From NCBI GenBank assembly GCA_021324255.1, contig JAJPJL010000050.1:2836-66835 (forward strand): a DNA stretch of 64,000 nt. The letters are read 5' to 3'. The DNA is from Bacillota bacterium (GTDB lineage Bacteria > Sysuimicrobiota > Sysuimicrobiia > Sysuimicrobiales > Segetimicrobiaceae). Positions 2,539 to 16,705 of the stretch are shown here, in pieces. The notes under the pieces are model-generated. The model saw only the letters and a list, made by a program, of their open reading frames with translations. It was not told where the DNA came from and made no database searches. Position numbers and translations under genes: made by a program. Position 1 is the stretch's first letter, and every line of letters begins with the position of its first letter.

Positions 2539-4923
2539 TCACACGCCGCCGGCCGGAACGCGCGGAGTCTGCCCGGACGATCCGCGCGTGCGGGCGCGTT
2601 CCCTCTGCCGGTCCACACACCACACCAGAATGCCGACCAAGAGCGTGCTGCCGCTCACGAGACCGCCTATGACCAACCGGCGGTCGTGATACGCAAAGAT
2701 GACGGTGTGCGTGCCGGCCGGTACGAAGACCGCGCGGAACAGGTAGTTGGCCCGATAGACCGGCGTTGAACGCCCATCGACGGATGCGTTCCACGCAGGG
2801 TAGTAGAGGTCGTTGAGCACGAGGAACCCGGCGCTCCCAAACACCACGTGGAGTACCACACCGTCGGGACGATAGGAGGTAATCGCGACGCGGGACGCCG
2901 GGTCGGGGGGCTGCGTGGCGCGGCGGAGCGTTGGGCCGGCCGTCGGCTGCTGCTCCAGTATGACATAGCGGCGCGGATCATAACCCGGCCGGCTCAAGGT
3001 CCGCAGAATCTCCAGACGATCCGTCAGCACGCGATAGCTCTCCGAGCGGATCGCGCGGGGAACCACCGCGGTATTCCGGTATACCGTGACGCCCGGGGCG
3101 ACCTCGGTCGGTAACCACGGCGCCGCAAGCGGCGGGAGCATTCCCGACCGATCGACGACGTACTTCACGTTCAGCAAGCTGATGAGCGGCGAGTCGAAGT
3201 GGCCTCGGAGCAGGACGCCGTGCGGGCCCGCCGGGCGGTTCGAGAAATTCCAGATAGGATAGCCTTGGATGAAGTTCGTGTACTCACTGTACCGTGCGGA
3301 GAGCAATCCCACTTCACCCTGCACCTCTTGAACCTCCGCGGCGACGGCGCGATCTCCGAGCCCGTACACGCGGTAGTCGGACCGGTCGCGCTCGAGGTAG
3401 CGCTCCACCGCCTCATCGGCGGCGGAGCTTCGCATGTCGGTGCCGGTATTGACGAGCGGCAGCGCAAACCCGAGGAGATCCGCGATGACGAACGCCGCCG
3501 CGGCCGCGGCGGTGCGGGCGGAGCCGGTCGGCCACCGGGCGCGGAGGTGGAGCAGTCCAAAGCTGATCCCCAACATGACAAAGGCGAACGCGGCGCTCTC
3601 TTCCACGGCAGGTACTAATCGGGCCCTGACCGCCGCGTCGTTCAGGATCCCCCGGCGCGCCACGAGCGTCGCTGCCGCAAGAACCACGGCTGCGCCGAGA
3701 CAGCGAAGCAGTATCTTGAACGTCCGCGGCCACAGTGCGGGTGCGGTATCACGCGCCCGGAACACGTCGAAGCCGACGCCGGCGAGCACGGCCGCACTGA
3801 GCGGTACGAGGGCGTTGATGTCCTCGATGTTCTTGAGATCGCGGAGAATCGGAACGTACTGCACGGCGCGGTAGACGAGCCCGTACTTGCCGAGCGCAAT
3901 CCAGAGTACGCCGAGGCCGAAGAAGGCGAAAAACCTGACATGCCAGCGGTCCCAACGCGTGACGATACCCGCCGCGATCAGCGCGAGCGTGAAGAAGCCT
4001 ACGTACAGCGTGGAGGAGTGAAAGTAGAACTCACGCTCGAGCGATTCGCCCCAATTCGTATGCTCGTTTCCGAAGAACAACGGCGCGACAAACGAGACCA
4101 GCCCGACCGGCGGGATCGATCCGATGAAGGGGAAGTCCGGCTCGGGGCTGCTTCGGTTCGCCAGGGCGAGGGCTTGCGAGGACGGGAGATACTGTACCGC
4201 GACGAGGGGCGCGGCGATGCCGAACATGAACAACAAGATCACGACAATCGCGCTGGCTCGCACACCGCCCTGCCCGCGAACCTTCAACGCCCGGCTGGCG
4301 GCGTACGCGGCGGCCGCCATCGTGGAGTAGACAAACGTCTGGGGATCGCCGGCCAGGAACTGCGATGCCAGGACCACGCCACCGACCAGCGCGGCGCCGG
4401 CCCGGCGGCGCCCATCGGTGATCCCGTCGATGAGATAGAAAAGAAACGGCGTCCATGCGTACACTTCCACCCGCTGGATCTCCCCGGCCATGAGGCGGGT
4501 ACCCGTGTAGCCCGCGAGCATGTACACTGCGGCCCCCACCAGGCGCGCCGGACGAGTGAGCCCGAGGCCCAAGAGATAGAGGTCCATGAATGCGCCGGCG
4601 AGCACGAGATGCACGACAATCCCGGTGTTGATGGCATCGTGCACCGAAAGCACGGCGAGCAGTGGAACCGTCAGCGGATAGAAGAATCCCGTCGGGAGAT
4701 CGGCGACTGCCGGGTAGCCGGACGCAAGATACGGGTTCCACAACGGCAGGTGCCCGGATCGTATCTGTCTTGCAACGAACAGCAACCGGTAGAAGTGGTG
4801 AGTGAGCTCGCCACCCCCGATCAGGTCTCCCCGGCCCAGCGACGGCAGCACGAGCAGGCATGCCAGCGCCGCCAAACAGGCAAGGTCTGCCGGCGGAACG
4901 CGGCGTTGCGGTCGTGGCATCAT
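2539..4923 (-). CDS. YfhO-family-like large membrane protein (putative glycan/teichoic-acid glycosylation protein)
   Basis: About 795 aa from the MM start (ATG 4923/4920). The N-terminal loop GDLIGGGELTHHFYRLLFVARQIRSGHLPLWNPYLASGYP resembles the conserved N-terminal region of YfhO-family proteins. Many TM helices span the N-terminal two thirds, followed by a C-terminal soluble region. The track ORF extends to 5154, but that part would collide with the Fsa gene. Confidence 0.45.
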   Translation of the reverse strand: MMPRPQRRVPPADLACLAALACLLVLPSLGRGDLIGGGELTHHFYRLLFVARQIRSGHLPLWNPYLASGYPAVADLPTGFFYPLTVPLLAVLSVHDAINTGIVVHLVLAGAFMDLYLLGLGLTRPARLVGAAVYMLAGYTGTRLMAGEIQRVEVYAWTPFLFYLIDGITDGRRRAGAALVGGVVLASQFLAGDPQTFVYSTMAAAAYAASRALKVRGQGGVRASAIVVILLFMFGIAAPLVAVQYLPSSQALALANRSSPEPDFPFIGSIPPVGLVSFVAPLFFGNEHTNWGESLEREFYFHSSTLYVGFFTLALIAAGIVTRWDRWHVRFFAFFGLGVLWIALGKYGLVYRAVQYVPILRDLKNIEDINALVPLSAAVLAGVGFDVFRARDTAPALWPRTFKILLRCLGAAVVLAAATLVARRGILNDAAVRARLVPAVEESAAFAFVMLGISFGLLHLRARWPTGSARTAAAAAAFVIADLLGFALPLVNTGTDMRSSAADEAVERYLERDRSDYRVYGLGDRAVAAEVQEVQGEVGLLSARYSEYTNFIQGYPIWNFSNRPAGPHGVLLRGHFDSPLISLLNVKYVVDRSGMLPPLAAPWLPTEVAPGVTVYRNTAVVPRAIRSESYRVLTDRLEILRTLSRPGYDPRRYVILEQQPTAGPTLRRATQPPDPASRVAITSYRPDGVVLHVVFGSAGFLVLNDLYYPAWNASVDGRSTPVYRANYLFRAVFVPAGTHTVIFAYHDRRLVIGGLVSGSTLLVGILVWCVDRQRERARTRGSSGQTPRVPAGGV

Positions 4924-5237: not shown

Positions 5238-5948
5238 ATGCCCCATGATGGGTCGAGACGCGGCATGGAGATCTTCTTGGATTCCGCGAACATGTCGGAG
5301 ATCGGGCGCTGGCTCGACGAAGGGTTGGTGGACGGAGTCACCACCAATCCTTCCATCATGCTCGCCGACGGCGTCTATGATCTGACGCTCGGCGCGCGCC
5401 AGATTGCAAAGTTGATTCACCCTCTTCCGCTGTCCGTGGAGGTCACGACCGACGACCCCGATGAGATGCTGCGCCAGGGGCGAACGCTGGCCGGTATTGC
5501 GGAGAATATAGTCGTGAAGATCCCGGTCATCGATCGGTCTGGGAATCCCTGCCTGCGCGTCGTCCGAACACTCGAGACCGAGGGAATCCGCGTCAACGTG
5601 ACGGCGTGTCTGTCTTTCGGTCAGGCCGCCATGGCCGCGAAGGTCGGCGCGACGTACGTGAGCTTGTTCGCCGGCCGGATTTCCGACGAAGGCCATGACG
5701 CGAGCGCCGTGATCCGCGCAACCGCGGAGTGGCTGGCGTACTGGGGATACCCGAGCCGCATCATCGTCGGAAGTATTCGCCAGGTCTTCGACGTTCAGGC
5801 GGCTGCCTTGGCCCGTGCTCACGTCATCACGGTGCCGCCCGCGTTTCTGGGGAAACTCCTGGATCACCGGTATTCCCGCGATACGGTGCGCGGGTTCCTC
5901 GACGACGGCCGAAAAGCGCTGTCCAAGATGGAGGCTGCAGGTGTCTGA
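5238..5948 (+). CDS. Fructose-6-phosphate aldolase / transaldolase family (Fsa/TalC-like)
   Basis: MEIFLDSANMSEI...GVTTNPSI...VVKIPV...NVTACLS...VSLFAGRISD matches the short transaldolase/Fsa family (~225 aa) along its whole length. Start is ATG 5238 or 5265. The 5' 378 nt of the track ORF (4860..5237) is unlikely to be coding. Confidence 0.8.
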   Translation: MPHDGSRRGMEIFLDSANMSEIGRWLDEGLVDGVTTNPSIMLADGVYDLTLGARQIAKLIHPLPLSVEVTTDDPDEMLRQGRTLAGIAENIVVKIPVIDRSGNPCLRVVRTLETEGIRVNVTACLSFGQAAMAAKVGATYVSLFAGRISDEGHDASAVIRATAEWLAYWGYPSRIIVGSIRQVFDVQAAALARAHVITVPPAFLGKLLDHRYSRDTVRGFLDDGRKALSKMEAAGV

Positions 5949-6957
5949 GGTCCAAGAGTCCCACTCCGGGGCCGTAGTTCCCCGTGCCGCCGAGCGTCCA
6001 GGCGTGCCGGAGTGCGAGCTCCTCCGTGCGATGCTGCGGATTCGCTGTGTCGAAGAGACGCTGGCGGATTTGTACGCCGAGCAGGAGATGCGGACGCCGA
6101 CGCATTTTTCGATCGGACAGGAAGCCGTCGCCGTCGGCGTTTGCGCGGCCCTGCGGCGCGCCGACGTGATCTATAGCGGCCACCGGTGTCATGCCCACTA
6201 TCTCGCGAAGGGCGGCAGCCTGCTGGGCATGGTCGGCGAGCTCTACGGCCGCGAGATCGGGACGGCGCGCGGGCGCGGCGGGTCGGTCCACTTGGCGCAA
6301 CCGGAGGTGGGCGTGATCGCCTCCTCGGCCATCTTGGGGCAGACGCTGGCGGTCGCGGTCGGCTCGGCGTGGGCGTTCGCAATGGATCACGCGCCACGGA
6401 TTGCCGTGGCATTCTTTGGCGACGGCGCGGTGGAGGAAGGCATCTTTCACGAGAGTCTCAACTTCGCGGCGCTGCACCGCGTCCCGGTCCTCTTCGTGTG
6501 CGAAAATAATCTCTATTCCACACACAGCGGGCTCGCCGTGCGTCAACCGGCGGGCCGGTCGATCTACGAGCGGGTCGGCGCCTACGGCATCACCACGGAA
6601 CATGTCGACGGGAACGACGTCCTTGCGGTGCGGCAGGCAGCGTCGCGAGCCGCGGACCACTGCCGCAGTGGAAAGGGACCGTACTTCCTCGAGTGCGCCA
6701 CGTACCGCTGGCGGGAACACGTCGGGCCGCTCTGGGACTACGATCGCGGTTATCGCACGAAGGAGGAGGTCGAGCAGTGGATGGCGCGCTGTCCGATCAA
6801 GCGGCTGACCGAGCATTGTCTGGCCCGAGGGTTGTGCACGCCCGCGGACGTGGAAGCGTGGCGTCAGGAGTTCCGCCGCGAGGTCGACGCGGCCGTGGCG
6901 ACCGCGCGGCGCAGTCCGTTCCCGCGGCCTGAGGCTATTCTGGAAGGCACGTACTGA
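5941..6957 (+). CDS. Thiamine-diphosphate-dependent dehydrogenase E1 component, alpha subunit (PdhA/AcoA-like)
   Basis: FSIGQEAVAVG...YSGHRCHAHYLAKGG...GRGGSVHL...FFGDGAVEEGIFHESLNFAALHRVPVLFVCENNLYS carries the ThDP-binding GDG(x)25-27NN motif of the E1-alpha family. Start is GTG 5941, overlapping the Fsa stop. Length is ~338 aa. Confidence 0.8.
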   Translation: MSEVQESHSGAVVPRAAERPGVPECELLRAMLRIRCVEETLADLYAEQEMRTPTHFSIGQEAVAVGVCAALRRADVIYSGHRCHAHYLAKGGSLLGMVGELYGREIGTARGRGGSVHLAQPEVGVIASSAILGQTLAVAVGSAWAFAMDHAPRIAVAFFGDGAVEEGIFHESLNFAALHRVPVLFVCENNLYSTHSGLAVRQPAGRSIYERVGAYGITTEHVDGNDVLAVRQAASRAADHCRSGKGPYFLECATYRWREHVGPLWDYDRGYRTKEEVEQWMARCPIKRLTEHCLARGLCTPADVEAWRQEFRREVDAAVATARRSPFPRPEAILEGTY

Positions 6958-7063
6958 CGTCCCCGCTGCTCGTGCGCGCGACTCGCCGCCAGCTCTCCGC
7001 CCCGCACGAGGATCGTACAATCGAGCGGCCGAGGTCACGGCTGCGACCCACGGGAGGCACCGT

Positions 7064-8098
7064 GTGCAACGCCTGAAGTACTGGCAAGCGATCAGTCAGG
7101 GTCTGGTGCAGTGCATGGAGCGCGACCCCGCGGTTATCATCACGGGGATTGGCGTCGACGACTTCAAAGGGATCTTCGGCACCACCCGGGCCGCCTTCGA
7201 ACGGTTCGGGGCCGCGCGCGTGATCGATATTCCAAACTGCGAGAACGCGTTCGCCGGGATCGCGATCGGCGCGGCGGCGATGGGGAAACGGCCGGTCGTG
7301 GTCCACCCGAGGAACGACTTCATGTTCTTGGCGTTCGACCAGATCATGAACCTGGCGGCCAAGTGGAAGTACATGTACCAGGCGAAACGCGGCGTTCCCG
7401 TCGTCTTTCGCGGAATCGTTGGACGGGGCTGGGGACAGGGAGCGACGCATTCCCAGAGCCTCCAATCCGTCTTCGCGCATTTTCCCGGCTTGCACGTCGC
7501 CGTGCCGGCGTCGCCCGCCGACGCCAAAGGGCTGCTCGTGGCGGCGCTTCGTGAGGATACGCCCGCGGTGTTGTTGGAAAACCGGGCCCTGTACGAGCTC
7601 GAAGGCGATGTCCCGGAAGAGCCGGTTCCGATCCCGTTCGGCAAAGCCCGCATCGTGCGGGAAGGCACCGACGTGACGATCGTGGGCGCGTCGCTCATGG
7701 CGTACGAGGCGGCGCGCGCGGCGGATCTGCTGGCCGAGCATGGGATCAGCGCGGAAGTGATCGACCCTCGAAGTCTACGGCCCCTCGACACCGGCACGAT
7801 CCTCGAATCCCTTCGCAAGACGGGACGATTGATCGTCGCCGACACGAGTTGGGCCATGTACGGCTTCTCCGCCGAGGTGGCGGCGCTCGCGGCGGAGCAC
7901 GGTCACGCGTGTCTCAAGGCTCCGGTGCGCCGGGTGACCCCGCTCGACTGTCCCGCGCCCGTGTCCCGCCCGCTCGAGGAGGCATTTCATCCCACGCCCA
8001 TGACCATCGTGCGTGCGTGCCTCGATGTGCTCGAGTTGACGGCGACGACGAGCCGGGCGCTCGCGGACGTCCAGGCGCGCTTCCCCGGGCCGTATTGA
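7064..8098 (+). CDS. E1 component beta subunit (transketolase-like pyrimidine-binding plus C-terminal domain)
   Basis: IITGIGVDDFKGIFGTTRAAFERFGAARVIDIPNCENAFAGIAIGAAAMGKRPVV...VPASPADAKGLLVAAL...IVGASLMAYEA is typical E1-beta/AcoB. GTG 7064 is preceded by GGGAGG. Confidence 0.8.
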   Translation: MQRLKYWQAISQGLVQCMERDPAVIITGIGVDDFKGIFGTTRAAFERFGAARVIDIPNCENAFAGIAIGAAAMGKRPVVVHPRNDFMFLAFDQIMNLAAKWKYMYQAKRGVPVVFRGIVGRGWGQGATHSQSLQSVFAHFPGLHVAVPASPADAKGLLVAALREDTPAVLLENRALYELEGDVPEEPVPIPFGKARIVREGTDVTIVGASLMAYEAARAADLLAEHGISAEVIDPRSLRPLDTGTILESLRKTGRLIVADTSWAMYGFSAEVAALAAEHGHACLKAPVRRVTPLDCPAPVSRPLEEAFHPTPMTIVRACLDVLELTATTSRALADVQARFPGPY

Positions 8099-8112
8099 GG
8101 AACGAGGCCAGC

Positions 8113-8886
8113 GTGCGGACGCCATCGTTAACGATCTTCGTCCCGGCGCACAACGAGGCCAAGAACGTGGCGGGGGCGGTTCGGGACGTCGTCGAGGCTG
8201 CGTCGGACACCTGCCCGGATTACGAAGTCCTCGTCGTCGACGACGGCAGCATCGACGGGACGGGCGAGGTCGCGGATCGGCTCGCGCGAGCGAATCCGCG
8301 CATCCGCGTCGTTCACAATCGCCCGAAGCAAGGGTTGGCCGGCGGGTATCGGACCGCGCTCAACGCCGCGACCAAGGACTACTTCGCGTTCATCCCCGGA
8401 GATCGCGAAATTCGCGCCGACTCGATTCGCGCCATCTTCGGCGCGATCGGGTCCGCGGACCTTGTCGTGCCGTACCACGCAAACCAGGAGGCCCGGGCCT
8501 GGCACCGCCGTGTGCTGACCGTCGTATCGACTGGGCTGATCAACCTGCTGTTTCGACGAGGATTGCGCTACTATCAGGGGCCCACGGTCTATCCGACGGC
8601 CCTCGCGCGGGCGCTCCCGACGCGCACGCGGGGCTTCTTTTTCCTGGCGGAGATGCTGCTGCATGCGCTGGACCGCGGCTGCACCTATGTGGAGGTCGGC
8701 CTGGTGCATCAGGAACGGGCGTTCGGGAAGTCCAAGGCCGTGACGCTACCTAACATCCTGACGGCGCTGCGCGCCATCCTGGGGACGTGGTGGGTGCTCC
8801 GCGTTCACCGCGCCGGCCCGTCGGCCGTACGGGAACCGTCCGAGCTCACTCCGGACCGTCACATGGGAGGCCGCGTGAAATCGTGA
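8113..8886 (+). CDS. GT2 glycosyltransferase, polyprenol-phosphate sugar synthase type (DPM1/GtrB/ArnC-like)
   Basis: SLTIFVPAHNEAKNV...YEVLVVDDGSIDGTGEVA...LINLLFRRGLRYYQGPTVY has the GT-A DxD (VDDGS) and the architecture of Dpm1/GtrB-type enzymes. Start is GTG 8113 (no in-frame ATG upstream). The stop overlaps the next start (GTGA). Confidence 0.75.
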   Translation: MRTPSLTIFVPAHNEAKNVAGAVRDVVEAASDTCPDYEVLVVDDGSIDGTGEVADRLARANPRIRVVHNRPKQGLAGGYRTALNAATKDYFAFIPGDREIRADSIRAIFGAIGSADLVVPYHANQEARAWHRRVLTVVSTGLINLLFRRGLRYYQGPTVYPTALARALPTRTRGFFFLAEMLLHALDRGCTYVEVGLVHQERAFGKSKAVTLPNILTALRAILGTWWVLRVHRAGPSAVREPSELTPDRHMGGRVKS

Positions 8887-9890
8887 GGACCGTCTTGGTG
8901 ACCGGAGGTGCGGGGTACGTCGGAGCGGTTCTCGTCCCGAAACTCCTCGGGCGCGGGTACCGCGTGCGAGTGCTCGACCTCTATCTCTTCGGCGATCGGG
9001 TGTTCGCGGAATATTCGGACACCCGCGCGCTGGAGGAAGTCCGCGGCGATATCCGCGACCAAGCGTTGCTACGCCGTATTCTGCCGGGATGCGACACCGT
9101 GATTCACCTGGCATGCATCTCCAACGATCCCAGCTTCGAGCTGAATCCGGCGTTGAGCCGGTCGATCAACTACGACGCCTTCGAGCCGCTTGTCGCGATC
9201 GCGCGCCAGGCCGGCGTGCGGCGCTTCATCTACGCCTCCACGTCGAGCGTGTACGGCGTGAGCGACAGCGAACGGGTGACAGAGGAACACCCGCTCGTCC
9301 CCCTCACCGATTACAACAAGTACAAGGGGCTGTGCGAGCCAATCCTGCTGCGGTATCAGTCGCCGGAGTTCACGACCGTGATCATCCGTCCGGCGACGAT
9401 CTGCGGGTACTCGCCGCGGCTGCGCTTGGATCTCAGCGTCAACATCCTCACCAACCTTGCGGTCAATACGCGCAAGATCACGATTTTCGGCGGCGCTCAG
9501 AAGCGGCCCAATATCCATATCGACGACATCACGGATCTCTATGTCGATCTGGTCGACATGCCGGAACGGGCGATCGCCGGCCAGATCTTCAACGCGTCAT
9601 ATCAGAATCAAACGATTGCGCGTCTGGGCGAGATCGTGCGGACCGTCGTCACCGGCGAGATGCCCAACCTCGCGCCCATCGAGATCGAAACGACGACGAG
9701 CAACGATCTGCGCTCCTATCACGTGTCGTCCGAGAAGATCGAGCGTGTTCTCGGATTTGTCCCGAAGCGGACGGTCGAGGACGCCGTGCGGGATCTGTGC
9801 GGGGCGTTTCGCGCCGGGAAGATTCCCGACCCGCTCGAGGACATCCGCTACTACAACGTCAAGACGATCCAGGCGTCGAAGCTGAGCTGA
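8883..9890 (+). CDS. NAD-dependent epimerase/dehydratase (SDR family, nucleotide-sugar modifying)
   Basis: VLVTGGAGYVGAVLVPKL is a Rossmann GxxGxxG segment, and DYNKYK holds the YxxxK catalytic pair. Length is ~336 aa. Confidence 0.8.
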   Translation: MRTVLVTGGAGYVGAVLVPKLLGRGYRVRVLDLYLFGDRVFAEYSDTRALEEVRGDIRDQALLRRILPGCDTVIHLACISNDPSFELNPALSRSINYDAFEPLVAIARQAGVRRFIYASTSSVYGVSDSERVTEEHPLVPLTDYNKYKGLCEPILLRYQSPEFTTVIIRPATICGYSPRLRLDLSVNILTNLAVNTRKITIFGGAQKRPNIHIDDITDLYVDLVDMPERAIAGQIFNASYQNQTIARLGEIVRTVVTGEMPNLAPIEIETTTSNDLRSYHVSSEKIERVLGFVPKRTVEDAVRDLCGAFRAGKIPDPLEDIRYYNVKTIQASKLS

Positions 9891-9893
9891 AGG

Positions 9894-10940
9894 GTGCATG
9901 GGGGGCGCCCCGGGGCAGGTGTGGTCGTGAGAGTTGTTGTGACCGGCGGCGCGGGATTCATCGGCAGCCACGTCGTGGATCTCCTTGTCGATCGCGGCTT
10001 CGACGTCATCGTGATCGACGACCTGAGTACGGGACGGGCGGACAACCTGGTCCGGCACCGGCGGAACTCGAGGGTGCAGCTCCACCAAATCGACGTCGCC
10101 GCCCTTGCCCCACCTTCCCCGGTGTTTGCCGGCGTCGACTACGTGTTTCATCTGGCGGGGCGCGGCGACATCGTGCCGTCGATCGAGCGTCCGCTCGACT
10201 ACATGCGTGTCAACGTGACCGGCACGCTCGCCGTGCTGGAGGCGGCGCGATGGGCCGGGGCGCGCAAGGTGGTCTACGCCGCGTCCTCGTCCTGCTATGG
10301 ATCGCGTCCACCCGTGCCGACCGATGAGAGCGCGCCCATTGTCGCCGAGTATCCGTACGCGCTGAGCAAGTATCTCGGGGAGTGCGCCGTGCTTCACTGG
10401 GGCCGGGTCTACGGGTTGCCCGTGACGTCGATCCGCATCTTTAATGCCTTCGGGCCGCGAGCGCGAACCCGCGGCGCCTACGGGGCGGTGTTCGGCGTGT
10501 TCCTGGCGCAAAAGTTGAAGGGCCAGCCGTTCACGATCGTGGGCGACGGCAGCCAGCGGCGGGATTTCGTGTATGTCACGGATGTGGCCAACGCGTTTGT
10601 TTTGGCCGCGGAGTCGACCGACAGCGGAGAGATATTCAACCTCGGAGCGGGCAATCCGCAGAGCGTCAATCGCCTCGTCGAGTTGCTCGGAGGCGAAACG
10701 GTGCACGTCCCGAAGCGGCCGGCGGAACCAGACTGCACGTGGGCGGACATCCGCAAGATTCGAACGCGGCTCGGGTGGACTCCCCGCGTGTCGTTTGAAG
10801 AAGGAGTGGCCCGTATGCTCGAAGCCATCGACTACTGGGCGGACGCGCCGGTCTGGACGCCGGAGGCGATCCACGCCGCGACCGCGACGTGGTTTAAGTA
10901 CCTCGGACGGCAGCCCGCGACCGGGGAGGGGAACACGTGA
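9894..10940 (+). CDS. NAD-dependent epimerase/dehydratase (UDP-sugar 4-epimerase-like)
   Basis: VVVTGGAGFIGSHVVDLL and YPYALSKYLGE (YxxxK). The real start may be GTG about 9930. Confidence 0.8.
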   Translation: MHGGRPGAGVVVRVVVTGGAGFIGSHVVDLLVDRGFDVIVIDDLSTGRADNLVRHRRNSRVQLHQIDVAALAPPSPVFAGVDYVFHLAGRGDIVPSIERPLDYMRVNVTGTLAVLEAARWAGARKVVYAASSSCYGSRPPVPTDESAPIVAEYPYALSKYLGECAVLHWGRVYGLPVTSIRIFNAFGPRARTRGAYGAVFGVFLAQKLKGQPFTIVGDGSQRRDFVYVTDVANAFVLAAESTDSGEIFNLGAGNPQSVNRLVELLGGETVHVPKRPAEPDCTWADIRKIRTRLGWTPRVSFEEGVARMLEAIDYWADAPVWTPEAIHAATATWFKYLGRQPATGEGNT

Positions 10941-12472
10941 GTCCGGACTATCGGCAAAAGATCAGGACCCGCGAGGAAGTCGCCGCATTGATCGGGCCAC
11001 GGCCGCGCGCCCGCACGGTCGTCATGTGCCATGGGGCCTTTGACATTGTGCACCCGGGACACCTGCGGCATTTGACCTATGCGAAGGAGAAGGCCGACCT
11101 GCTGATCGCGAGCATTACGACCGATTTGGAGATCACCAAGGCAAACTACCGCCCGTACGTTCCCGAGGAACTGCGGGCCCTGAACCTTGCCGCCCTCGAG
11201 GTGGTCGATTTCGTGATCGTGGACCACAACGCGACGCCGATCGACAATATCCTGTATCTGCAGCCCGACTACTTCGCGAAAGGGTACGAATATTTTTCGA
11301 ACGGCATCCCCCCGAAGACGCGCGAGGAGATGGAAGCGCTCAAGACATACGGCGGCGAGATGCTCTTTACGCCCGGCGACATCGTCTATTCATCCTCGGC
11401 ACTCATCGAATCTCAGCCGCCCCGGATCGCCGTCGACAAACTGCTGATTTTGATGGAGTCGGAACGAATCAGCTTCGACGATCTGCGCCGGACCCTCGAA
11501 CGGTTCGAGGGACAGCACGTGCACGTGGTTGGCGACACCATCGTCGACAGCTATTGTTACTGCTCGCTCCTCGGGGCGACCGCAAAGTCGCCGACGCTCA
11601 GCATCCGGTTTGAGCGCAAGGATGTGTTCGCCGGCGGCGCCGCCGCGGTGGCGAAGCACATGCGCGCGACGGGCGCCGATGTGACGCTGTCCACGGTGCT
11701 GGGCGACGATGAGCCGCGCGCCTTTGTCGAGCGGGAGATGCGGAATGCCGGTGTGCGGCTCTTCCCGGTGGTCGACCGGATGCGCACGACGACCTACAAG
11801 GAGCGGTTCTTCGCCGAAGGGTACAAGATGCTCCAGGTGGACCGGCTGGACAACCGGACGGTGTCCGAGGCCGCGCTCGACGCGATTGGACGGACGCTGC
11901 GCGACGCCGCGGCCGATATTGTCGTATTCAGCGACTTCCGCCACGGTATCTTCAATCGCCAGACGATCGGACGGCTGCGCGAGAGCATTTCCCGTGATGC
12001 GCTCACCGTTGCCGACAGCCAGGTCAGCAACCGGTGGGGCAACATCTTAGACTTCACCGAGTTCGACTTGTTGACTCCCAACGAGCGCGAGGCACGGTTC
12101 GCCCTCGGCGATCAGGATTCCGTCGTGCGGCCGCTCGCGTTGAAGTTGTTTCAGGCGGCGCGGTGCCGCTGGCTGATTCTCAAGCTGGGCGAGCGGGGGT
12201 TGTTAGGATACCGGACGCCGGGGCACATGCCCCGCGAGTTCTTCACCGTGGACAGTTTCGCCGAACACGTGGCCGATCCGATCGGGGCAGGCGATGCGCT
12301 GCTCGCCTACGCCTCGCTGGCGCAACGCGTCACCGGGAACATCGTGATTGCGGCGATCCTCGGGTCCGCCGCGGCGGGGGTGTCGTGCGAGCGGCAGGGC
12401 AACGTTTCCGTCACACCCGAAGAAGTCCATCGGAAGCTCGATGCGCTCGAGAAGCACGTACAGTATCGATGA
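10937..12472 (+). CDS. Bifunctional heptose 1-phosphate nucleotidyltransferase / heptose 7-phosphate kinase (HldE-like, domains in reversed order)
   Basis: The N-terminal ~170 aa (VMCHGAFDIVHPGHLRHL...RPYVPEELRALNLAALEVVDFVIV) carries the HxGH cytidylyltransferase-like motif of HldE domain II. The C-terminal ~330 aa (HVVGDTIVDSYCY...GGAAAVAKHM...DPIGAGDALLAYAS) is a PfkB/ribokinase-like sugar kinase alignable to HldE domain I. gmhB and gmhA follow within 3 kb. Confidence 0.75.
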   Translation: MSPDYRQKIRTREEVAALIGPRPRARTVVMCHGAFDIVHPGHLRHLTYAKEKADLLIASITTDLEITKANYRPYVPEELRALNLAALEVVDFVIVDHNATPIDNILYLQPDYFAKGYEYFSNGIPPKTREEMEALKTYGGEMLFTPGDIVYSSSALIESQPPRIAVDKLLILMESERISFDDLRRTLERFEGQHVHVVGDTIVDSYCYCSLLGATAKSPTLSIRFERKDVFAGGAAAVAKHMRATGADVTLSTVLGDDEPRAFVEREMRNAGVRLFPVVDRMRTTTYKERFFAEGYKMLQVDRLDNRTVSEAALDAIGRTLRDAAADIVVFSDFRHGIFNRQTIGRLRESISRDALTVADSQVSNRWGNILDFTEFDLLTPNEREARFALGDQDSVVRPLALKLFQAARCRWLILKLGERGLLGYRTPGHMPREFFTVDSFAEHVADPIGAGDALLAYASLAQRVTGNIVIAAILGSAAAGVSCERQGNVSVTPEEVHRKLDALEKHVQYR

Positions 12473-13377
12473 GGTACCTGGTCGTCGGCTACGGGAACAT
12501 CGGAGCGAAGCGGCGGGCACTCCTGGGCGACCGCTGCATCGGCACCGTGGATCCGTACAATCCCGAGGCGGATTACGCCGACCTCGAGGCATGCCCCGCG
12601 GACCGCTACGACGCCGCCGTCCTTGCAGTGCCGAATCACGTGAAGATTCCACAACTGGAGTTCCTCCTGGATCGTGGTAAGCATGTGCTGGTCGAGAAGC
12701 CGCTCGTCTTTCCCGACGGGTCCGTCGCGGCGCGATTGGCACACACGGCGCGGGCGAACGGCGCCGTCTGGTACACGTCGTACAATTTCCGCTTCGAGCC
12801 GCATGTTGTGGCGATTCGACGGTTGCTGGCCGAGGAGGCCGTCGGGACGGTGTATCGGGTGCGCATGTTCTACGGCAACGGGACCGCGGCGAACGTCGCC
12901 GGAACGTGGCGGGATGATCATCTCGGAGTGTTGCAAGATTTGGCGAGTCACTTGATCGACCTCGCCGGGTGGGCGTTCGGCCGCTTTGGGACCGAGTTTC
13001 TGGTCTGGGCGCGGGAAGCGCATGAGCTCCGAGGCGTCGACCACTGTATCCTTGCGACGGCGGATCGCCGCGTGGTGCTCGAGTGCAGCTATTTATCGTG
13101 GAAGAACCGTTGGTCCATCGAGGTCGTCGGCTCGAGGGGCACGCTGCAGATGGAAGGATTGACCAAGTGGGGGCCGACCGTGCTCGTCGTGCAGCGTCGC
13201 CGCCTGCCAAGCGGCGTGCCTGAGGAGGAGCGCGACGTGGTGAGCCTGCCGGATCCGACCTGGGCGGCCGACATCGTGCACTTCGAGGCGATGGCGGCGG
13301 CCGGCCAGACCTCGTGCGACAATGATTTGTGGGTGTCCCGAACTCTGTTGCACGCAGCGTCATGTCCGTTGAGTTGA
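12469..13377 (+). CDS. Gfo/Idh/MocA-family NAD(P)-dependent oxidoreductase (nucleotide-sugar dehydrogenase/oxidase-like)
   Basis: MRYLVVGYGNIGAKRRALL is an N-terminal Rossmann segment, and VEKPL is the family signature. ATG 12469 overlaps the upstream stop (ATGA). Confidence 0.75.
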   Translation: MRYLVVGYGNIGAKRRALLGDRCIGTVDPYNPEADYADLEACPADRYDAAVLAVPNHVKIPQLEFLLDRGKHVLVEKPLVFPDGSVAARLAHTARANGAVWYTSYNFRFEPHVVAIRRLLAEEAVGTVYRVRMFYGNGTAANVAGTWRDDHLGVLQDLASHLIDLAGWAFGRFGTEFLVWAREAHELRGVDHCILATADRRVVLECSYLSWKNRWSIEVVGSRGTLQMEGLTKWGPTVLVVQRRRLPSGVPEEERDVVSLPDPTWAADIVHFEAMAAAGQTSCDNDLWVSRTLLHAASCPLS

Positions 13378-14681
13378 CGTCCGTGGCGGCGAGACCGACC
13401 GGCTTCGTCGGGCTCTCGCACCTTGGGATCGTCTGCGGCATCGGCTGGGCGTCGCTCGGGGGGCCCGTCATCGCCGTGGATCCCAGGCGCGAGGTGATCG
13501 AGGAGCTCGCCGGGGGCGGCCTGCCCATTCATGAGCCCGGACTCGGATCGCTCTGGGACGGGGTCCGTGCCTCGCTGAGGCTCACCACGGATTTCGCGGC
13601 GCTGCGGGAGTGCCCGCTCGTGATCCTCGCGCAGGATGTGCCGACGGCCGAGGACAATCGGAGCGATCTCGATGCCATCCATAGGCTCATCGATCGAATC
13701 CTGCCCCACCTCCGCCCGCAGGCGACTCTGGTCATCATGAGCCAGGTACCGGCGGGTTTCACGCGGGCGGTTGCCGGCCGCGTCCGGACGGAGTATCCCG
13801 AGCGCGACCTCGGCGTCTACTACTGGGTGGAGACCCTCGTACTCGGCCGAGCGGTGGAGCGGTATTTGCACCCGGAGCGGATCATCCTGGGATGCGAGGA
13901 TCCGGCGAAGCCATGGCCGGAGGCGCTCGCCCAGGGGCTGCGCCGGTTCGACTGTCCAGTCCTGCCGATGCGATATGAGAGCGCTGAGCTGACGAAAACC
14001 GCCATCAACCTGTATCTGGCGAGCGCGGTGACCTTCGCGAATACGCTGTCGGATCTGTGCGAACGAATCGGCGCCGACTGGTCCGAAGTGACTCCCGCTC
14101 TTCGGCTGGACGCCCGGATCGGGCCGGCCGCCTACATCCGGCCCGGGCTCGGGATCGCAGGGGGCAACCTGGAGCGGGATCTCGTGACGCTCGCAGAGCT
14201 GGCGGCCGCCCACGGCAGCGACGCCTCGTTTATCCAAGCGATCACGGCTTACAACGAACGGCGGATCCGCTGGGTGCTCGACAAGCTCGATACGCTCCTC
14301 TTTCCGGAGACGCCCCGGCCCACGATCGCTCTCTGGGGACTCGCGTACAAGAAGGGGACGCAGTCTGTGAAGAATTCTCCGGCCCTCCGCGTGATTTCAG
14401 ATCTCGCCGGCCGGGCGCTGCTCCGGGCCTATGATCCGGTGGTCGGCCGGCTTCGGGTGGATGGGGTGACCGTCGTGTCGCACCGTGACGAGGCCGCCGC
14501 CGGCGCGGATTGCCTCCTCATCATGACCGACTGGGATGAATTCGGCGCCGCGAATGTCGCAGAGCTCGGCAGGAACCTCAGGCGGCCGCTGGTCATCGAT
14601 CCCGTGGGCGCTCTGGAGCATCGTCGGGCCGAACTGAAGGGACTTCGGTACGTCTCGATGGGCCGCCCGGTCGCCGGATGA
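13362..14681 (+). CDS. UDP-glucose/GDP-mannose 6-dehydrogenase family (nucleotide-sugar 6-dehydrogenase)
   Basis: FVGLSHLGIVCGIGWA is the N-terminal NAD-binding segment. The central dimerisation and UDP-binding segments (GCEDP...ESAELTKTAINLYLA...GLGIAGGNLERD) and the C-terminal WGLAYKKGT motif are typical of the family. Confidence 0.8.
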   Translation: MSVELTSVAARPTGFVGLSHLGIVCGIGWASLGGPVIAVDPRREVIEELAGGGLPIHEPGLGSLWDGVRASLRLTTDFAALRECPLVILAQDVPTAEDNRSDLDAIHRLIDRILPHLRPQATLVIMSQVPAGFTRAVAGRVRTEYPERDLGVYYWVETLVLGRAVERYLHPERIILGCEDPAKPWPEALAQGLRRFDCPVLPMRYESAELTKTAINLYLASAVTFANTLSDLCERIGADWSEVTPALRLDARIGPAAYIRPGLGIAGGNLERDLVTLAELAAAHGSDASFIQAITAYNERRIRWVLDKLDTLLFPETPRPTIALWGLAYKKGTQSVKNSPALRVISDLAGRALLRAYDPVVGRLRVDGVTVVSHRDEAAAGADCLLIMTDWDEFGAANVAELGRNLRRPLVIDPVGALEHRRAELKGLRYVSMGRPVAG

Positions 14682-15214
14682 GCGTGGGGCGTCGCGCGGT
14701 TTTTCTCGACCGTGACGGCGTCCTCGTGGAGGAGATCGTCCGCGGGGGCCGTGCATACGCGCCCCTGCGCCTCGAGGACTTTCGCGTGGTCCCGCAGGCC
14801 GGCCGCCAGGTGGAGCGGCTCCGTGCGGCGGGGCTGACCTGCATCGTCGTGACGAATCAGCCGGACCTCGCACGCGGCGCGCTGCACCCGCACGCCCTTG
14901 AGCAAATGCATGCCCATCTGCGGACCGAGGTTCACGTGAGCGATATCTATGTATGCCCGCACGCCTCGACGGACGGGTGCGCTTGTCACAAGCCCAAGCC
15001 GGGCCTGCTGCGGGCCGCCGCGCGCAAACACGACATCGACCTTGCGCAATCGTTTCTGATCGGGGATCGGTGGCGGGACATCGGCGCGGGCCGCGCGGCC
15101 GGGTGCTTTTCGATCCTGCTGGACCGTTCCTACAGCGGCTGCGACGCCGCCGACGCGCGCGTCGGCGACCTTGGGGAAGCCGTCGACGTGATCCTCTCCC
15201 GCCTGACGGGGTGA
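14678..15214 (+). CDS. gmhB: D-glycero-D-manno-heptose 1,7-bisphosphate phosphatase (HAD family)
   Basis: AVFLDRDGVLVEE is the HAD motif I (DxDG). The zinc-binding CxH...CxC cluster (CPHASTDGCACHKPKPGLL) is characteristic of GmhB/histidinol-phosphatase-like HAD proteins. The ATGA overlap ties it to the upstream gene. Confidence 0.75.
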   Translation: MSVGRRAVFLDRDGVLVEEIVRGGRAYAPLRLEDFRVVPQAGRQVERLRAAGLTCIVVTNQPDLARGALHPHALEQMHAHLRTEVHVSDIYVCPHASTDGCACHKPKPGLLRAAARKHDIDLAQSFLIGDRWRDIGAGRAAGCFSILLDRSYSGCDAADARVGDLGEAVDVILSRLTG

Positions 15215-15217
15215 CAT

Positions 15218-15820
15218 ATGGAGTTTGTGCGCCGATATCTGAGCGACGTCAAGGCCATTGCGGACCGGCTCGACGCGGCGGCGATCGAGCGGTTGGTGGC
15301 GCAGATGGTCGACTTGCGCGACCGCGGCGGACGGCTCTTTTGCCTGGGTGTCGGAGGCGGGGCGGGACACGCCTCGCATGCGGTGAACGATTTTCGGAAG
15401 CTGGCGGGGATCGAGGCCTACTCGCCGTCCGACAATGTTTCCGAGATCACGGCGCGCATTAACGACGAGGGATGGGACACCTCCTACGCTAACTGGCTCA
15501 AGGCGAGCCGGTTAGGGCCTCGGGACGGGATCCTGGTGCTGTCCGTGGGCGGCGGCAATGTGGAAAAGGGCGTCAGCATCAACCTGGTGCGCGCGGTCGA
15601 GCTGGCCAAGGAGGTCGGCGCGCGGGTGTGGGGCATCGTGGGCCGCGATGGCGGCTTTACCGGCCAGGTTGCGGATGCGTGCGTGCTGGTCCCGAGTGTG
15701 AACCCGCAGACCGTCACGCCACACACGGAGGCCTTTCAGGCGGTCGTGTGGCATCTCATCGTTTCGCATCCGCGGCTGCGGGTGTCTTCGGCAAAGTGGG
15801 AATCGCTCGCGACGTCCTAG
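15218..15820 (+). CDS. gmhA: Phosphoheptose isomerase (SIS domain)
   Basis: GGRLFCLGVGGGAGHASHAVNDFRK...VLSVGGGN...GARVWGIVGRDGG matches the SIS-domain GmhA family. Length is ~200 aa. Confidence 0.8.
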   Translation: MEFVRRYLSDVKAIADRLDAAAIERLVAQMVDLRDRGGRLFCLGVGGGAGHASHAVNDFRKLAGIEAYSPSDNVSEITARINDEGWDTSYANWLKASRLGPRDGILVLSVGGGNVEKGVSINLVRAVELAKEVGARVWGIVGRDGGFTGQVADACVLVPSVNPQTVTPHTEAFQAVVWHLIVSHPRLRVSSAKWESLATS

Positions 15821-15831
15821 AGGGAGGGGCC

Positions 15832-16704: not shown

Positions 16705-16705
16705 C

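Follow-up and report, generated by a model that had tools for sequence, protein, structure and literature searches.

E1-alpha/E1-beta pairs that lie among nucleotide-sugar genes without E2 or E3 are represented by Pau11/Pau12, AviB1/AviB2, AlmDI/DII and KbDH-alpha/beta. Pau11 and Pau12 are homologues of AviB1 and AviB2 and are assigned the two-carbon branch at C4'', and knock-out of pau11 abolishes paulomycin production (PMC4425429); in vitro, KbDH-alpha/beta joins pyruvate to ketones, sugar analogues among them (PMC12247030). For this alpha-KADH2 class, the donor is pyruvate and the acceptor a sugar ketone (PMC4425429, PMC12247030). The branched sugars of lipopolysaccharide (LPS) are credited, in one review, to YerE-like enzymes and not to E1 pairs. 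The 64 kb stretch of DNA analysed here (the window) carries such a pair within a 14-gene operon that most likely builds an unusual C7/C8 cell-surface sugar with a two-carbon branch from pyruvate. The features of the locus are as follows:

2539–4923, − strand: YfhO-like polytopic membrane protein, divergent neighbour (weak C-terminal Pfam YfhO match, 27 versus 28.5 bits)
5238–5948, + strand: short TalC/TacTal-type transaldolase, 236 aa (Pfam TAL_FSA PF00923, E = 2.8e-42)
5941–6957, + strand: ThDP-binding E1-alpha of the E2-independent pair, 338 aa, GTG start (Pfam E1_dh PF00676, E = 1.7e-67)
6958–7063, + strand: spacer of 106 nt, E1-alpha to E1-beta
7064–8098, + strand: E1-beta with pyrimidine-binding (Transket_pyr) and Transketolase_C domains, 344 aa, GTG start (Pfam PF02779 and PF02780)
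8113–8886, + strand: GT2 glycosyltransferase, 257 aa (Pfam Glycos_transf_2)
8898–9890, + strand: SDR1, extended SDR of epimerase/oxidoreductase type (Pfam Epimerase)
9894–10940, + strand: SDR2, extended SDR of epimerase/oxidoreductase type (Pfam Epimerase and GDP_Man_Dehyd)
10937–12472, + strand: fusion protein of 511 aa in reversed HldE order, with a cytidylyltransferase-like domain at the N-terminus (Pfam CTP_transf_like, residues 31–156) and a PfkB kinase at the C-terminus (Pfam PfkB, residues 194–492)
12469–13377, + strand: Gfo/Idh/MocA oxidoreductase, 302 aa (weak NCBIfam and PDB matches)
13362–14681, + strand: UDP-glucose/GDP-mannose-dehydrogenase-family (UGDH-like) protein of 439 aa, catalytic cysteine lost (TIGR03026, 248 bits)
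14678–15214, + strand: GmhB-like HAD-IIIA phosphatase, 178 aa (NCBIfam PRK08942, 112 bits against a cut-off of 178)
15218–15820, + strand: GmhA-like SIS_2 ketose-phosphate isomerase, 200 aa (TIGR00441 gmhA, 45 bits against a cut-off of 209)
15832–16704, + strand: SDR3, short Fcl/RmlD-like reductase, 290 aa (best NCBIfam matches GDP-fucose synthase and RmlD, all under cut-off)
16706–17359, + strand: MT1, class I SAM methyltransferase of 217 aa, a regular companion of the E1 pair
17368–18267, + strand: MT2, second methyltransferase, closing the co-directional run (51% identical to an L001 protein with Methyltransf_11)

The 14 co-directional genes from 5238 to 18267 on the + strand make up one tight operon, with gaps of at most 14 nt except for the single 106-nt gap between the two E1 genes. 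The preliminary description was correct in placing the transaldolase, E1-alpha and E1-beta genes at these positions, as borne out by their Pfam domains, and between the YfhO-like gene and the GT2 gene; the overlapping stops and starts that it also reported hold for the transaldolase/E1-alpha junction (8 nt), but not for E1-alpha and E1-beta, which are 106 nt apart, or for E1-beta and GT2, which are 14 nt apart. Public contigs of the same or nearly the same sequence, whose genes were called independently, show the same three lengths (236, 338 and 344 aa), and the identical E1-beta protein with the same neighbours is present on at least 24 public contigs. A Shine-Dalgarno sequence, GGGAGG, precedes the GTG start of E1-beta. 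In the 106-nt spacer we found no terminator-like site and no Rfam match, and its fold was no better than that of shuffled sequence (z = 0.76); the corresponding spacer is about 100–150 nt in L001 and L002 and about 106 nt in L087, and L003 has none such. The GT2 gene adjoins E1-beta in L001, L004 and L087 as well (69–73% identity), with no specific match to the window GT2 among solved structures, and the L087 orthologue of the YfhO-like gene (794 aa) is called YfhO. MT2, at the far end, has a GC content of 0.55 and no NCBIfam match. The arrangement is not a matter of chance: at least 10 lineages that are only distantly related have this gene set.

In a neighbour-joining tree of alpha plus beta (77–79 taxa, built without the AviB1/B2, AlmDI/DII and KbDH sequences), all 16 of the 16 E2-linked pairs were basal, and the window pair fell inside the E2-free clade in 100 of 100 bootstraps. 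The sister group of its subclade consists of four Streptomyces natural-product pairs, with an exclusive joint clade in 96 of 100 bootstraps, and includes orthologues of Pau11 and Pau12 (57% and 66% identity to the window pair); loci L008 and L009 show the gene layout of pau9–pau18, namely MFS transporter, EF-G, E1-alpha, E1-beta, a 426-aa GT, FAD hydroxylase, ADIC synthase, isochorismatase and DAHP synthase. Another sister pair, pSGRIFU1 (64% and 68% identity), adjoins an NRPS condensation-domain gene, which argues that the clade is not restricted to sugar acceptors; a search for sugar genes found none within 14 kb of that pair. E1-alpha, with the ThDP motif GDG(160–162)-X26-NN, shares 57–59% identity with Streptomyces deoxysugar-cluster pairs, 64% with the pSGRIFU1 pair and at most 47% with E2-linked pairs; E1-beta is 66–68% identical to the Streptomyces natural-product pairs. 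The lack of E2/E3 partners noted in the preliminary description holds for the 64 kb window, in which neither tblastn with the E2 and E3 proteins of locus L082 nor Pfam scans of the other large ORFs detected either. Both checks proposed there, the phylogeny and the search for E2/E3 genes, support the AviB-like sugar-branching role suggested for the pair, the chemistry of which we infer, and so does the gene linkage described below.

A recurrent cassette accompanies these pairs in Bacillota, Rokubacteria, Acidobacteriota, Bacteroidota, SAR11 and others. Its full form (L001–L004, L006, L012, L020, L021, L041, L048, L058 and L087) comprises the GmhA-like isomerase, GmhB-like phosphatase, transaldolase, SDR1, SDR2, reversed HldE-like fusion, Gfo/Idh/MocA protein, Cys-less UGDH-like protein, SDR3 and methyltransferase, with the transaldolase absent near L001, L002 and L041 and GmhB absent near L001, L002, L004, L041 and L048. 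A reduced form in about 25 more loci, one of them on a plasmid of the cultured Azospirillum oryzae KACC 14407, consists of SDR1, the fusion (CT-PfkB, common to both forms), an SIS protein, an RmlB-like SDR with its dehydratase Glu intact, MT1 and the E1 pair, with no UGDH-like, Gfo or transaldolase gene. SDR1, CT-PfkB or MT1 lies within 10 kb of the E1 pair in 39 of 66 non-E2 loci, and cassette genes were found near none of the 16 E2-linked pairs. Some reduced cassettes, such as that of L057, combine the E1 pair with a YerE-like enzyme and a DmpG/BphI-like aldolase.

Among individual members, SDR1 is the commonest cassette gene near E1 pairs (34 of 66 non-E2 loci), and SDR2 is 53–79% identical to its copies in other cassettes; the dehydratase acid pair is missing from both (motifs STSSVYG and ASSSCYG, respectively). 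The fusion scores under the rfaE cut-offs in both domains (141 against 345 bits for domain I, 84 against 181 for domain II), and Pfam SIS_2 was also found in orthologues of the GmhA-like isomerase. The Gfo gene, whose best weak match is the NDP-sugar 3-dehydrogenase WbpB, directly precedes the UGDH-like gene in all full cassettes for which the fetched region covers both genes. The UGDH-like protein reads GGNLERD in place of GGSCFPKD, and this same exchange is seen in all 11 cassette orthologues and in 120 of the 120 best database homologues, whereas the cysteine is kept in three non-cassette UGDHs. SDR3 is kept in full cassettes and may be the enzyme that reduces the branch or ring ketone. MT1 copies (45–75% identical) occur in 22 non-E2 loci, in 15 of them within 1.3 kb of the E1 pair; a PDB search with MT1 gave no informative match.

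The first gene of the operon had been described as an Fsa-type aldolase, which its residues contradict: it has the Glu/Thr/Phe of transaldolases rather than the Gln/Thr/Tyr of Fsa, with Glu60 and Phe132 as the transaldolase signature. All ten of ten catalytic residues are present (D6, N28, E60, K86, N108, T110, S130, F132, R135 and R169), identity to the transaldolases of T. maritima (1VPX) and T. acidophilum (3S0C) is about 39%, and the score lies under the NCBIfam Fsa/TalC equivalog cut-off (154 against 246 bits). Across phyla, the gene keeps its linkage to those for the GmhA-like and GmhB-like proteins, which fits a role in ketose phosphate supply and the earlier idea that it feeds a GmhA pathway; that pathway is, however, a divergent one, its members scoring far under NCBIfam equivalog cut-offs and its HldE-like domains being reversed. 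A transaldolase joined the cassette in two separate lineages. Its adjacency to the E1 pair is specific to the window lineage; in other cassettes its neighbours are the genes for the GmhA-like and GmhB-like proteins, and as much as 8 kb can separate it from the E1 genes.

Judged from sequence, the operon probably makes and decorates a nucleotide-activated C7/C8 sugar, and its E1 pair would attach a pyruvate-derived acetyl branch to an NDP-heptose or NDP-octose at a keto group, with donor, acceptor, branch position, chain length and step order all as we infer them. The transaldolase would transfer a C3 unit to an aldose phosphate to give sedoheptulose-7-P or octulose-8-P (the LmbR reaction), and this ketose phosphate could be isomerised by the GmhA-like protein, phosphorylated by the PfkB domain, dephosphorylated by the GmhB-like protein and turned into an NDP-sugar by the cytidylyltransferase-like domain. 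An oxidoreductase, for which SDR1, SDR2 or the Cys-less UGDH-like enzyme with the Gfo protein are candidates, would then make the keto group. Without E2/E3, the E1 pair would decarboxylate pyruvate to hydroxyethyl-ThDP, an acetyl-anion equivalent that could attack the sugar ketone to leave a C-acetyl branch at a tertiary alcohol, possibly reduced by SDR3 and possibly methylated by MT1. Counting against this pathway, the full cassette has no canonical 4,6-dehydratase, and SDR1 and SDR2 lack the acid pair.

Two alternatives concern the E1 pair itself, which is not a housekeeping dehydrogenase subunit. That it serves as E1 of an ordinary dehydrogenase complex for pyruvate, acetoin or branched-chain 2-oxoacids, with E2/E3 elsewhere and an incidental place in a glycan locus, is improbable in the extreme, despite best PDB matches to human PDH E1-alpha and BCKDH E1-alpha (E about 1e-44) and top NCBIfam matches to PDH E1 models: the scores fall under the equivalog cut-offs (295 against 394 bits for PDH E1-alpha), the clade is E2-free, linkage to nucleotide-sugar genes is kept across more than 10 phyla and never seen in E2-linked pairs, the window holds no E2/E3, and E1-alpha overlaps the transaldolase in a tightly spaced operon. 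Only three residues separate window-type from dehydrogenase-type E1 (E1-alpha N165E, E1-beta A126G and K174R) and the catalytic histidines of dehydrogenase-complex E1 are kept; lipoamide chemistry would thus be compatible with the protein sequence alone, which counts against the acetyl-branching reading. E1-like QncN/NapB-D enzymes of tetrahydroisoquinoline antibiotics are reported to use a ketose-phosphate donor. A similar transketolase-like use here, with a two-carbon unit from a ketose phosphate giving a glycolyl instead of an acetyl branch and the transaldolase on the 5′ side supplying or recycling the ketose, would suit the 8-nt overlap in the window lineage and the fold and ThDP chemistry common to E1 and transketolase, but it is very unlikely, as the adjacency is confined to that lineage, reduced cassettes have no transaldolase, and characterised close relatives take pyruvate.

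Two further alternatives concern the acceptor. LmbL/LmbZ act as a 6,8-dehydratase in lincosamide biosynthesis. In a comparable octose route, for which we see an appreciable but minor chance, the transaldolase would make octulose-8-P, the UGDH-like and Gfo proteins would act as the 6,8-dehydratase and leave a side-chain 6-ketone, and the E1 pair would acetylate this ketone, replacing the transamination by LmbS; the product would be a ten-carbon branched sugar. Six of eight Lmb sugar-stage functions have same-family counterparts (by the published tables PMC4351081 and PMC12945683 with Pfam/NCBIfam); the adjoining Gfo and UGDH-like genes mark full cassettes, which, apart from L001, L002 and L041, also carry the transaldolase and usually GmhB; a classical 4,6-dehydratase is missing; and the Gmh- and HldE-like proteins lie far under the heptose cut-offs. 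The kinase and nucleotidyltransferase families nevertheless differ from LmbP and LmbO, and sedoheptulose-7-P, also made by transaldolase, is the simpler reading. UGDHs require a thioester at the catalytic Cys to reach the acid, so that the acid should be out of reach of the UGDH-like protein; halting at the aldehyde of the terminal CH2OH of an NDP-sugar, it could offer the E1 pair a site for DXS-like acyloin condensation, lengthening the sugar by two carbons to a terminal 1-hydroxy-2-oxopropyl. Universal Cys loss in the cassette proteins and the general preference of ThDP carboligases for aldehydes speak for such an extension, which agrees with the chain-extended option of the preliminary description. 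We nonetheless consider it doubtful, because the reduced cassettes retain the E1 pair, MT1 and SDR1 without UGDH-like or Gfo genes and have the RmlB-like SDR instead, pointing to a shared E1 acceptor that is independent of the UGDH-like enzyme, and because all characterised relatives use ketones.

Compared with known systems, the acetyl-branching reading shares its chemistry, a ThDP acyl-anion and a nucleotide-sugar ketone followed by reduction, with the AHAS-like ThDP flavoenzymes YerE/ErwE, which act on CDP-4-keto-3,6-dideoxyglucose for LPS (PMC9306805); these are single chains of an unrelated ThDP fold family (TPP_enzyme_N/M/C), and none is present in the window. Acetoin and pyruvate dehydrogenase E1 (AcoA/AcoB, PdhA/PdhB) have the same fold, ThDP motif and catalytic histidines at about 38–47% identity, but are followed by a lipoyl-E2 gene (16 loci; also E3 in L082), whereas the window pair lacks both partners and stands apart in the tree. 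The ADP-/GDP-heptose pathway (GmhA, HldE or HddA/HddC, GmhB) uses the enzyme families and order of chemistry of the cassette, which differs in its own transaldolase, its reversed HldE-like order and four domains far under equivalog cut-offs (45/209, 141/345, 84/181 and 112/178 bits). With the lincomycin/celesticetin octose pathway (LmbR, N, P, K, O, M, L, Z, S), the full cassette shares, at family level, a transaldolase, SIS isomerase, HAD phosphatase, SDR epimerase, UGDH-family protein and second oxidoreductase, as well as the logic of ketose-P to aldose-P to 1-P to NDP-sugar to tailoring; it differs in fusing a PfkB kinase (not of the LmbP family) to a cytidylyltransferase-like domain (not the NTP_transferase of LmbO) and in having the E1 pair and methyltransferases instead of an aminotransferase. 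The gene set is at least as good a fit to this route as to that of ADP-heptose. The alpha-KADH2 pairs are found in antibiotic clusters of actinomycetes, with dTDP-deoxyhexoses or already attached sugars as substrates, whereas the window pair belongs to a cell-envelope polysaccharide locus, is tied to heptose/octose-type activation, a Cys-less UGDH-like protein and a dedicated methyltransferase, and has counterparts in many non-actinomycete phyla.

The three genes that the preliminary description had placed between a YfhO-like gene and a family 2 glycosyltransferase (GT2) are all found there, and the features on which the following analysis relies are listed here.

2539-4923, divergent: YfhO-like gene, upstream of the trio
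5238-5948, + strand: TAL_FSA-family protein, 236 aa
5941-6957, + strand: E1-alpha, E1_dh (PF00676), GTG start at 5941, 338 aa, motif GDG160-X26-NN
7064-8098, + strand: E1-beta, Transket_pyr (PF02779) and Transketolase_C (PF02780), 344 aa
8113-8886, + strand: GT2 gene, directly after E1-beta
10937-12472, + strand: cytidylyltransferase-PfkB (CT-PfkB) fusion, CTP_transf_like at residues 31-156 and PfkB at residues 194-492, the reverse of the HldE order
13362-14681, + strand: UGDH-like protein, the GGSCFPKD of UGDHs changed to GGNLERD, which puts Asn at the position of the catalytic Cys

E1-alpha and E1-beta are separate subunits with an intact ThDP motif and both beta-subunit domains (Pfam), and gene calls on public contigs carrying an identical or 96%-identical protein agree on the three lengths and on the neighbouring genes. 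The trio opens a run of fourteen genes on one strand (5238-18267), with nucleotide-sugar genes on both sides of the E1 pair (Pfam, NCBIfam); five junctions of this operon overlap, and its gaps are no longer than 14 nt except for a 106-nt spacer between E1-alpha and E1-beta. The overlapping stops and starts previously described are therefore present at the first junction of the trio (8 nt between the aldolase and E1-alpha genes) but not between the E1 genes (106 nt) or between E1-beta and the GT2 gene (14-nt gap). A regulatory element in the 106-nt spacer was rejected, as no terminator-like site was found in it, its fold was no better than that of shuffled sequence (z=0.76), and it matched no Rfam family. 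We also dropped the idea that the GT2 is a GtrB/CsbB-type polyprenyl-phosphate transferase partnering YfhO, since a PDB search returned generic GT2 matches only.

Both E1 subunits scored below the cut-offs of the pyruvate dehydrogenase models in NCBIfam: 295 bits for E1-alpha against the PDH E1 equivalog (cut-off 394), and 313 and 285 bits for E1-beta against PDH E1-type models (cut-offs 321 and 454), with the window pair about 38% identical to human PDH E1-alpha. The pair had been described as lacking E2 and E3 partners, and this holds for the 64 kb window: tblastn with the lipoyl-E2 and E3 of another E1-bearing locus (L082) found neither, and Pfam scans of the remaining large ORFs, which encode glycosyltransferases, a flippase, an acyltransferase, a priming transferase and housekeeping genes, found no 2-oxoacid dehydrogenase components. 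For comparison, the best 80 of 589 loci were taken from a scan of one genome per species, so that the taxonomic breadth reported below is a lower bound, and ORFs called in each locus were matched to the window proteins. Among these 80, a lipoyl-E2 gene adjoins the pair in 16, all of them among the pairs least similar to that of the window (40-47% identity). In a neighbour-joining tree of concatenated alpha and beta subunits (615 columns, calculated without AviB1/B2, AlmDI/DII and KbDH), the E2-linked pairs were basal, and every pair with a glycan or natural-product context fell into a derived, E2-free clade in 100 of 100 bootstraps. The phylogeny thus separates the window pair from complex-linked E1 and makes it sister to Pau11/12-type pairs, the window subclade and four Streptomyces pairs forming an exclusive clade in 96 of 100 bootstraps once a pair from plasmid pSGRIFU1 was added. 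A housekeeping E1 of a 2-oxoacid or acetoin dehydrogenase complex is accordingly very unlikely, and we rejected this reading on phylogeny, synteny and the absence of E2/E3 from the window; the sub-cut-off scores also count against it, as does the presence of an adjacent E2 at the 16 true complex loci and none in the window.

Streptomyces pairs are the nearest named relatives of the window pair, and three of them (L007-L009) share 57-59% identity with it in alpha and 66-67% in beta. One of them (L007) lies among genes for an NDP-hexose 2,3-dehydratase, a 3-ketoreductase-type Gfo/Idh/MocA oxidoreductase (Gfo), a nucleotidyltransferase, an EryCIII-type glycosyltransferase and a 3,5-epimerase, and the other two match the pau9-pau18 layout of the paulomycin cluster (Table 1, PMC4425429). 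The Streptomyces griseofuscus pair on pSGRIFU1 (L089, 14016-19546), the most similar among plasmid records (64% and 68% identity), adjoins an NRPS condensation-domain protein, gamma-butyrolactone regulators and a type II PKS, with no sugar genes near it; because this pair sits beside an NRPS gene, clade membership alone does not fix the acceptor. Residue evidence for a loss of lipoamide chemistry was dropped, as only three positions cleanly split 42 glycan/natural-product pairs from the 16 E2-linked pairs (E1-alpha 165, Asn to Glu in GDGAxN(Q/E)G; E1-beta 126, Ala to Gly before the HSQ histidine; E1-beta 174, Lys to Arg in ENK) and the glycan/natural-product pairs retain the catalytic histidines.

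The accompanying aldolase had been assigned to the Fsa type, and this assignment does not survive inspection of its active site. Alongside Lys85, Fsa has a water-binding triad, Gln59-Thr109-Tyr131, that sets it apart from transaldolase, and residue swaps interconvert the two activities (PMC13259622). Since Glu, Thr and Phe occupy the triad positions in the window protein, it is a transaldolase rather than Fsa, and its score against the NCBIfam Fsa/TalC equivalog (154 bits) is below the cut-off of 246. Among solved structures, the decameric enzymes of Thermotoga maritima and Thermoplasma acidophilum, both transaldolases, come closest to it, and an alignment with the Thermoplasma enzyme shows that D6, N28, E60, K86, N108, T110, S130, F132, R135 and R169 are retained. 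The window protein shares these ten transaldolase residues, the Schiff-base Lys included, with all eight of the other cassette transaldolases, so that by sequence we classify it as a short (TalC/TacTal-type) transaldolase. The cassette transaldolases form two lineages only 25-35% identical to each other, and that of the window is nearer the Thermotoga enzyme (39%) than the other lineage; this pattern suggests that a transaldolase was recruited to the cassette twice, which argues that its activity is needed there.

Beyond the trio, the E1 pair belongs to a conserved gene set. The full cassette comprises a GmhA-like SIS isomerase, a GmhB-like phosphatase, the transaldolase, two short-chain dehydrogenase/reductase-family proteins (SDR1 and SDR2), the CT-PfkB fusion, Gfo, the UGDH-like protein, SDR3, usually a SAM methyltransferase (MT1), and the E1 pair. 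It was found in a Bacillota MAG (L004, 66-83% identity), in metagenome contigs (L001-L003, L087), and in Rokubacteria (L006), Daejeonella (L012), Rhodospirillaceae (L020), Vicinamibacterales (L021), Hyphomicrobiales (L041), Pelagibacter (L048) and Rickettsiales (L058), with no transaldolase in the fetched stretch of L001/L002 and L041 and no GmhA-like or GmhB-like gene in that of some of the loci. About 25 further loci, among the best 80 of 589 genome loci and the plasmid records, have a reduced cassette of SDR1, sometimes SDR2, the CT-PfkB fusion, a SIS protein, an RmlB-like SDR, MT1, often a Zn-alcohol dehydrogenase (Zn-ADH), and the E1 pair; their hosts include Verrucomicrobia, Planctomycetes, Omnitrophota, Chlamydiales, Parcubacteria, Colwellia and Alteromonas. 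In the cultured Azospirillum oryzae KACC 14407, a reduced cassette lies on a plasmid (L088, 8765-20531) in the order SDR, SDR, CT-PfkB fusion, SIS, SDR and E1 pair, the last encoded by HUE56_RS00825 and HUE56_RS00820; two DegT-type aminotransferase genes and a gene for a radical SAM enzyme come next. Cassette genes occur at none of the 16 E2-linked loci versus 39 of the 66 others, and of the 22 loci with MT1, 15 have it within 1.3 kb of the E1 pair. The linkage is kept though gene order varies: the window lineage has the pair at the 5′ end of the cassette, other loci at the 3′ end. PDB searches with MT1 and with Gfo returned nothing informative.

Beside the E1 pair, several reduced cassettes (L057, 5741-20134; also L018, L023, L026 and L040) carry an AHAS/YerE-like enzyme, a DmpG/BphI-like 4-hydroxy-2-oxovalerate aldolase or both. 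Both are present in L057 and L040, the aldolase without the YerE-like enzyme in L026, and the reverse in L018 and L023. Two ThDP carboligase systems in one cluster suggest doubly branched or long-branched sugars.

The sugar-activating enzymes fall short of the NCBIfam cut-offs: 45 against 209 bits for the GmhA-like protein, 112 against 178 for the GmhB-like protein, and, for the HldE-like fusion, 141 against 345 in the kinase domain and 84 against 181 in the adenylyltransferase domain. With all scores below cut-off and the domain order reversed, the set does not qualify as an ADP-heptose pathway (GmhA/HldE/GmhB). The fusion itself is conserved in full and reduced cassettes at 30-79% identity. 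In UGDH and GMD, the catalytic Cys of GGxCxPKD is needed for the four-electron oxidation to a uronic acid, so the UGDH-like protein should be unable to make one. Its Cys-to-Asn replacement recurs in 11 of 11 cassette orthologues, whereas three unrelated UGDHs of the same loci keep the Cys, and in 120 of 120 best database homologues; a plasmid search with the protein returned canonical UGDHs only, at 36% identity or less. Such cysteine-less proteins constitute a large subfamily, probably mis-annotated as 'UDP-glucose 6-dehydrogenase'. The Gfo gene precedes the UGDH-like gene in every cassette in which both were fetched, and the two accompany the transaldolase and usually GmhB. Reduced cassettes never have this couple; they have the RmlB-like SDR (with Zn-ADH), which retains the Glu (IS[ST]PEVYG). 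SDR1 (STSSVYG) and SDR2 (ASSSCYG) are without the acid pair of 4,6-dehydratases. Most full cassettes have no RmlB-like match, and the matches in L020, L021 and L041 are weak (33-35% identity).

From enzyme families and precedents, a pathway can be proposed in which the transaldolase would form a ketose phosphate, the isomerase, kinase, phosphatase and nucleotidyltransferase would convert it to an NDP-sugar, and an oxidoreductase would introduce a ketone. The E1 pair would then decarboxylate pyruvate, the hydroxyethyl-ThDP carbanion attacking the sugar ketone, and SDR3 and MT1 would tailor the branched product. Chain extension, in which the cysteine-less UGDH-like enzyme would supply an aldehyde for the pair to act on, has chemical appeal yet is unlikely; that enzyme is missing from reduced cassettes, and for this reason extension cannot be the shared role of the pair. 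We hold it highly improbable that a ketose phosphate replaces pyruvate as the two-carbon donor: such a donor would account for the overlap of the transaldolase and E1-alpha genes, but their adjacency is limited to the window lineage.

As a rival to or extension of pyruvate addition at a ketone, and not as the main claim, we offer a reading of the full cassette that is possible although less likely than not as a whole, namely a widespread, hitherto undescribed pathway to a branched nine-to-ten-carbon sugar. A transaldolase-initiated, lincomycin-like octose (or heptose) route would here be joined to an E1-type ThDP branching enzyme, and the adjacent cysteine-less UGDH-like protein and Gfo would make the ketone as a two-component NDP-sugar dehydratase or oxidase; LmbL and LmbZ reportedly carry out jointly a 6,8-dehydration that leaves a 6-ketone. 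The product would be a cell-envelope sugar of groups that include SAR11, Rokubacteria, Acidobacteriota, Bacteroidota and Bacillota.

Elsewhere in the window, two paralogous polytopic membrane proteins (18410-20926 and 24135-26702; 838 and 855 aa, 43% identical over 823 aa) matched no Pfam family and lie where the GC content of the window is lowest (about 0.56-0.62, compared with 0.72-0.78 for the part with housekeeping genes). This segment may have been acquired, and the two proteins may be glycan polymerases or transferases of a novel kind. At 27544-29668, a small EamA-like protein with four helices (119 aa) precedes a polytopic membrane protein of 583 aa that has no Pfam match, and the two together recall a flippase and transferase of the ArnE/F-ArnT type. 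An insertion at 35167-37138, which separates a GT4 gene from the glycan locus's priming sugar transferase (Bac_transf, 37318-38037), holds two RHH-antitoxin/PIN-toxin pairs and a Pol-beta-type nucleotidyltransferase. An 802-aa ORF joining Zn-alcohol-dehydrogenase and Gfo/Idh/MocA domains (38735-41143) is followed by an extended SDR (41064-42161) and a nucleotidyltransferase (43165-44139), and these genes (38735-44139) may be a second nucleotide-sugar module. The sole Rfam match in the window is a glmS ribozyme (RF00234, 53222-53399, 85.8 bits) upstream of glmS (53517-55490); this ribozyme and the most similar locus of the genome scan point to Bacillota for the uncultured host.

The E1-type enzyme class is already known, and what appears to be new is its setting in a conserved, phylum-spanning envelope-glycan cassette. 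In the literature surveyed, sugar-branching E1-type ThDP enzymes come from actinomycete antibiotic clusters only, with one assayed in vitro. The window places this type inside a cell-envelope glycan operon conserved across many, mostly uncultured phyla, where it is accompanied by its own methyltransferase, by the reversed HldE-like fusion and by a UGDH-like subfamily, large and without the cysteine. We found no description of an E1 cassette with that subfamily and fusion in the searchable literature, and among papers on caryophyllose and E1, lincosamide dehydration and KbDH, none ties an E1 pair or the cassette to a surface glycan. If this picture is correct, abundant environmental bacteria would bear an undescribed complex sugar, and biocatalysis would gain a large new set of carboligases that accept ketones. 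Among cultured organisms, work could start from the plasmid of A. oryzae KACC 14407, whose reduced cassette would be a tractable system for the chemistry, and probably from Polynucleobacter sp. IMCC 30228.

In a comparison with the lincomycin octose pathway by function tables and family, six of its eight sugar-stage functions have family-level counterparts in the window (tables in PMC4351081 and PMC12945683): the transaldolase LmbR, isomerase LmbN, phosphatase LmbK, epimerase LmbM, dehydrogenase LmbL and oxidoreductase LmbZ, the last in the same broad class only. Where Lmb/Ccb has an LmbP-type kinase and an NTP_transferase-type guanylyltransferase (LmbO), the window has the PfkB/cytidylyltransferase-like fusion, and for the aminotransferase LmbS there is no counterpart, scans of the operon genes and of large ORFs having turned up no aminotransferase. 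Branches on LPS sugars have been credited to YerE-like enzymes (PMC12247030; PMC9306805), a family unrelated to the E1 type. For the E2-independent branching E1 class, a 2025 review uses the name alpha-KADH2, puts the number of gene clusters at about 120 and regards such enzymes as a secondary-metabolite feature; it reports that KbDH-alpha/beta couples pyruvate to ketones in vitro (PMC12247030). In paulomycin biosynthesis, disruption of pau11 abolishes production (PMC4425429). The window pair shares with alpha-KADH2 (AviB1/B2, Pau11/12, AlmDI/DII, KbDH) its separate subunits, the lack of E2/E3 and a nucleotide-sugar context, and in the tree it groups with pairs of a genetically validated type, Pau11/12, not with complex-forming E1. 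By analogy with this class, we infer that it catalyzes decarboxylative addition of pyruvate to a sugar ketone.
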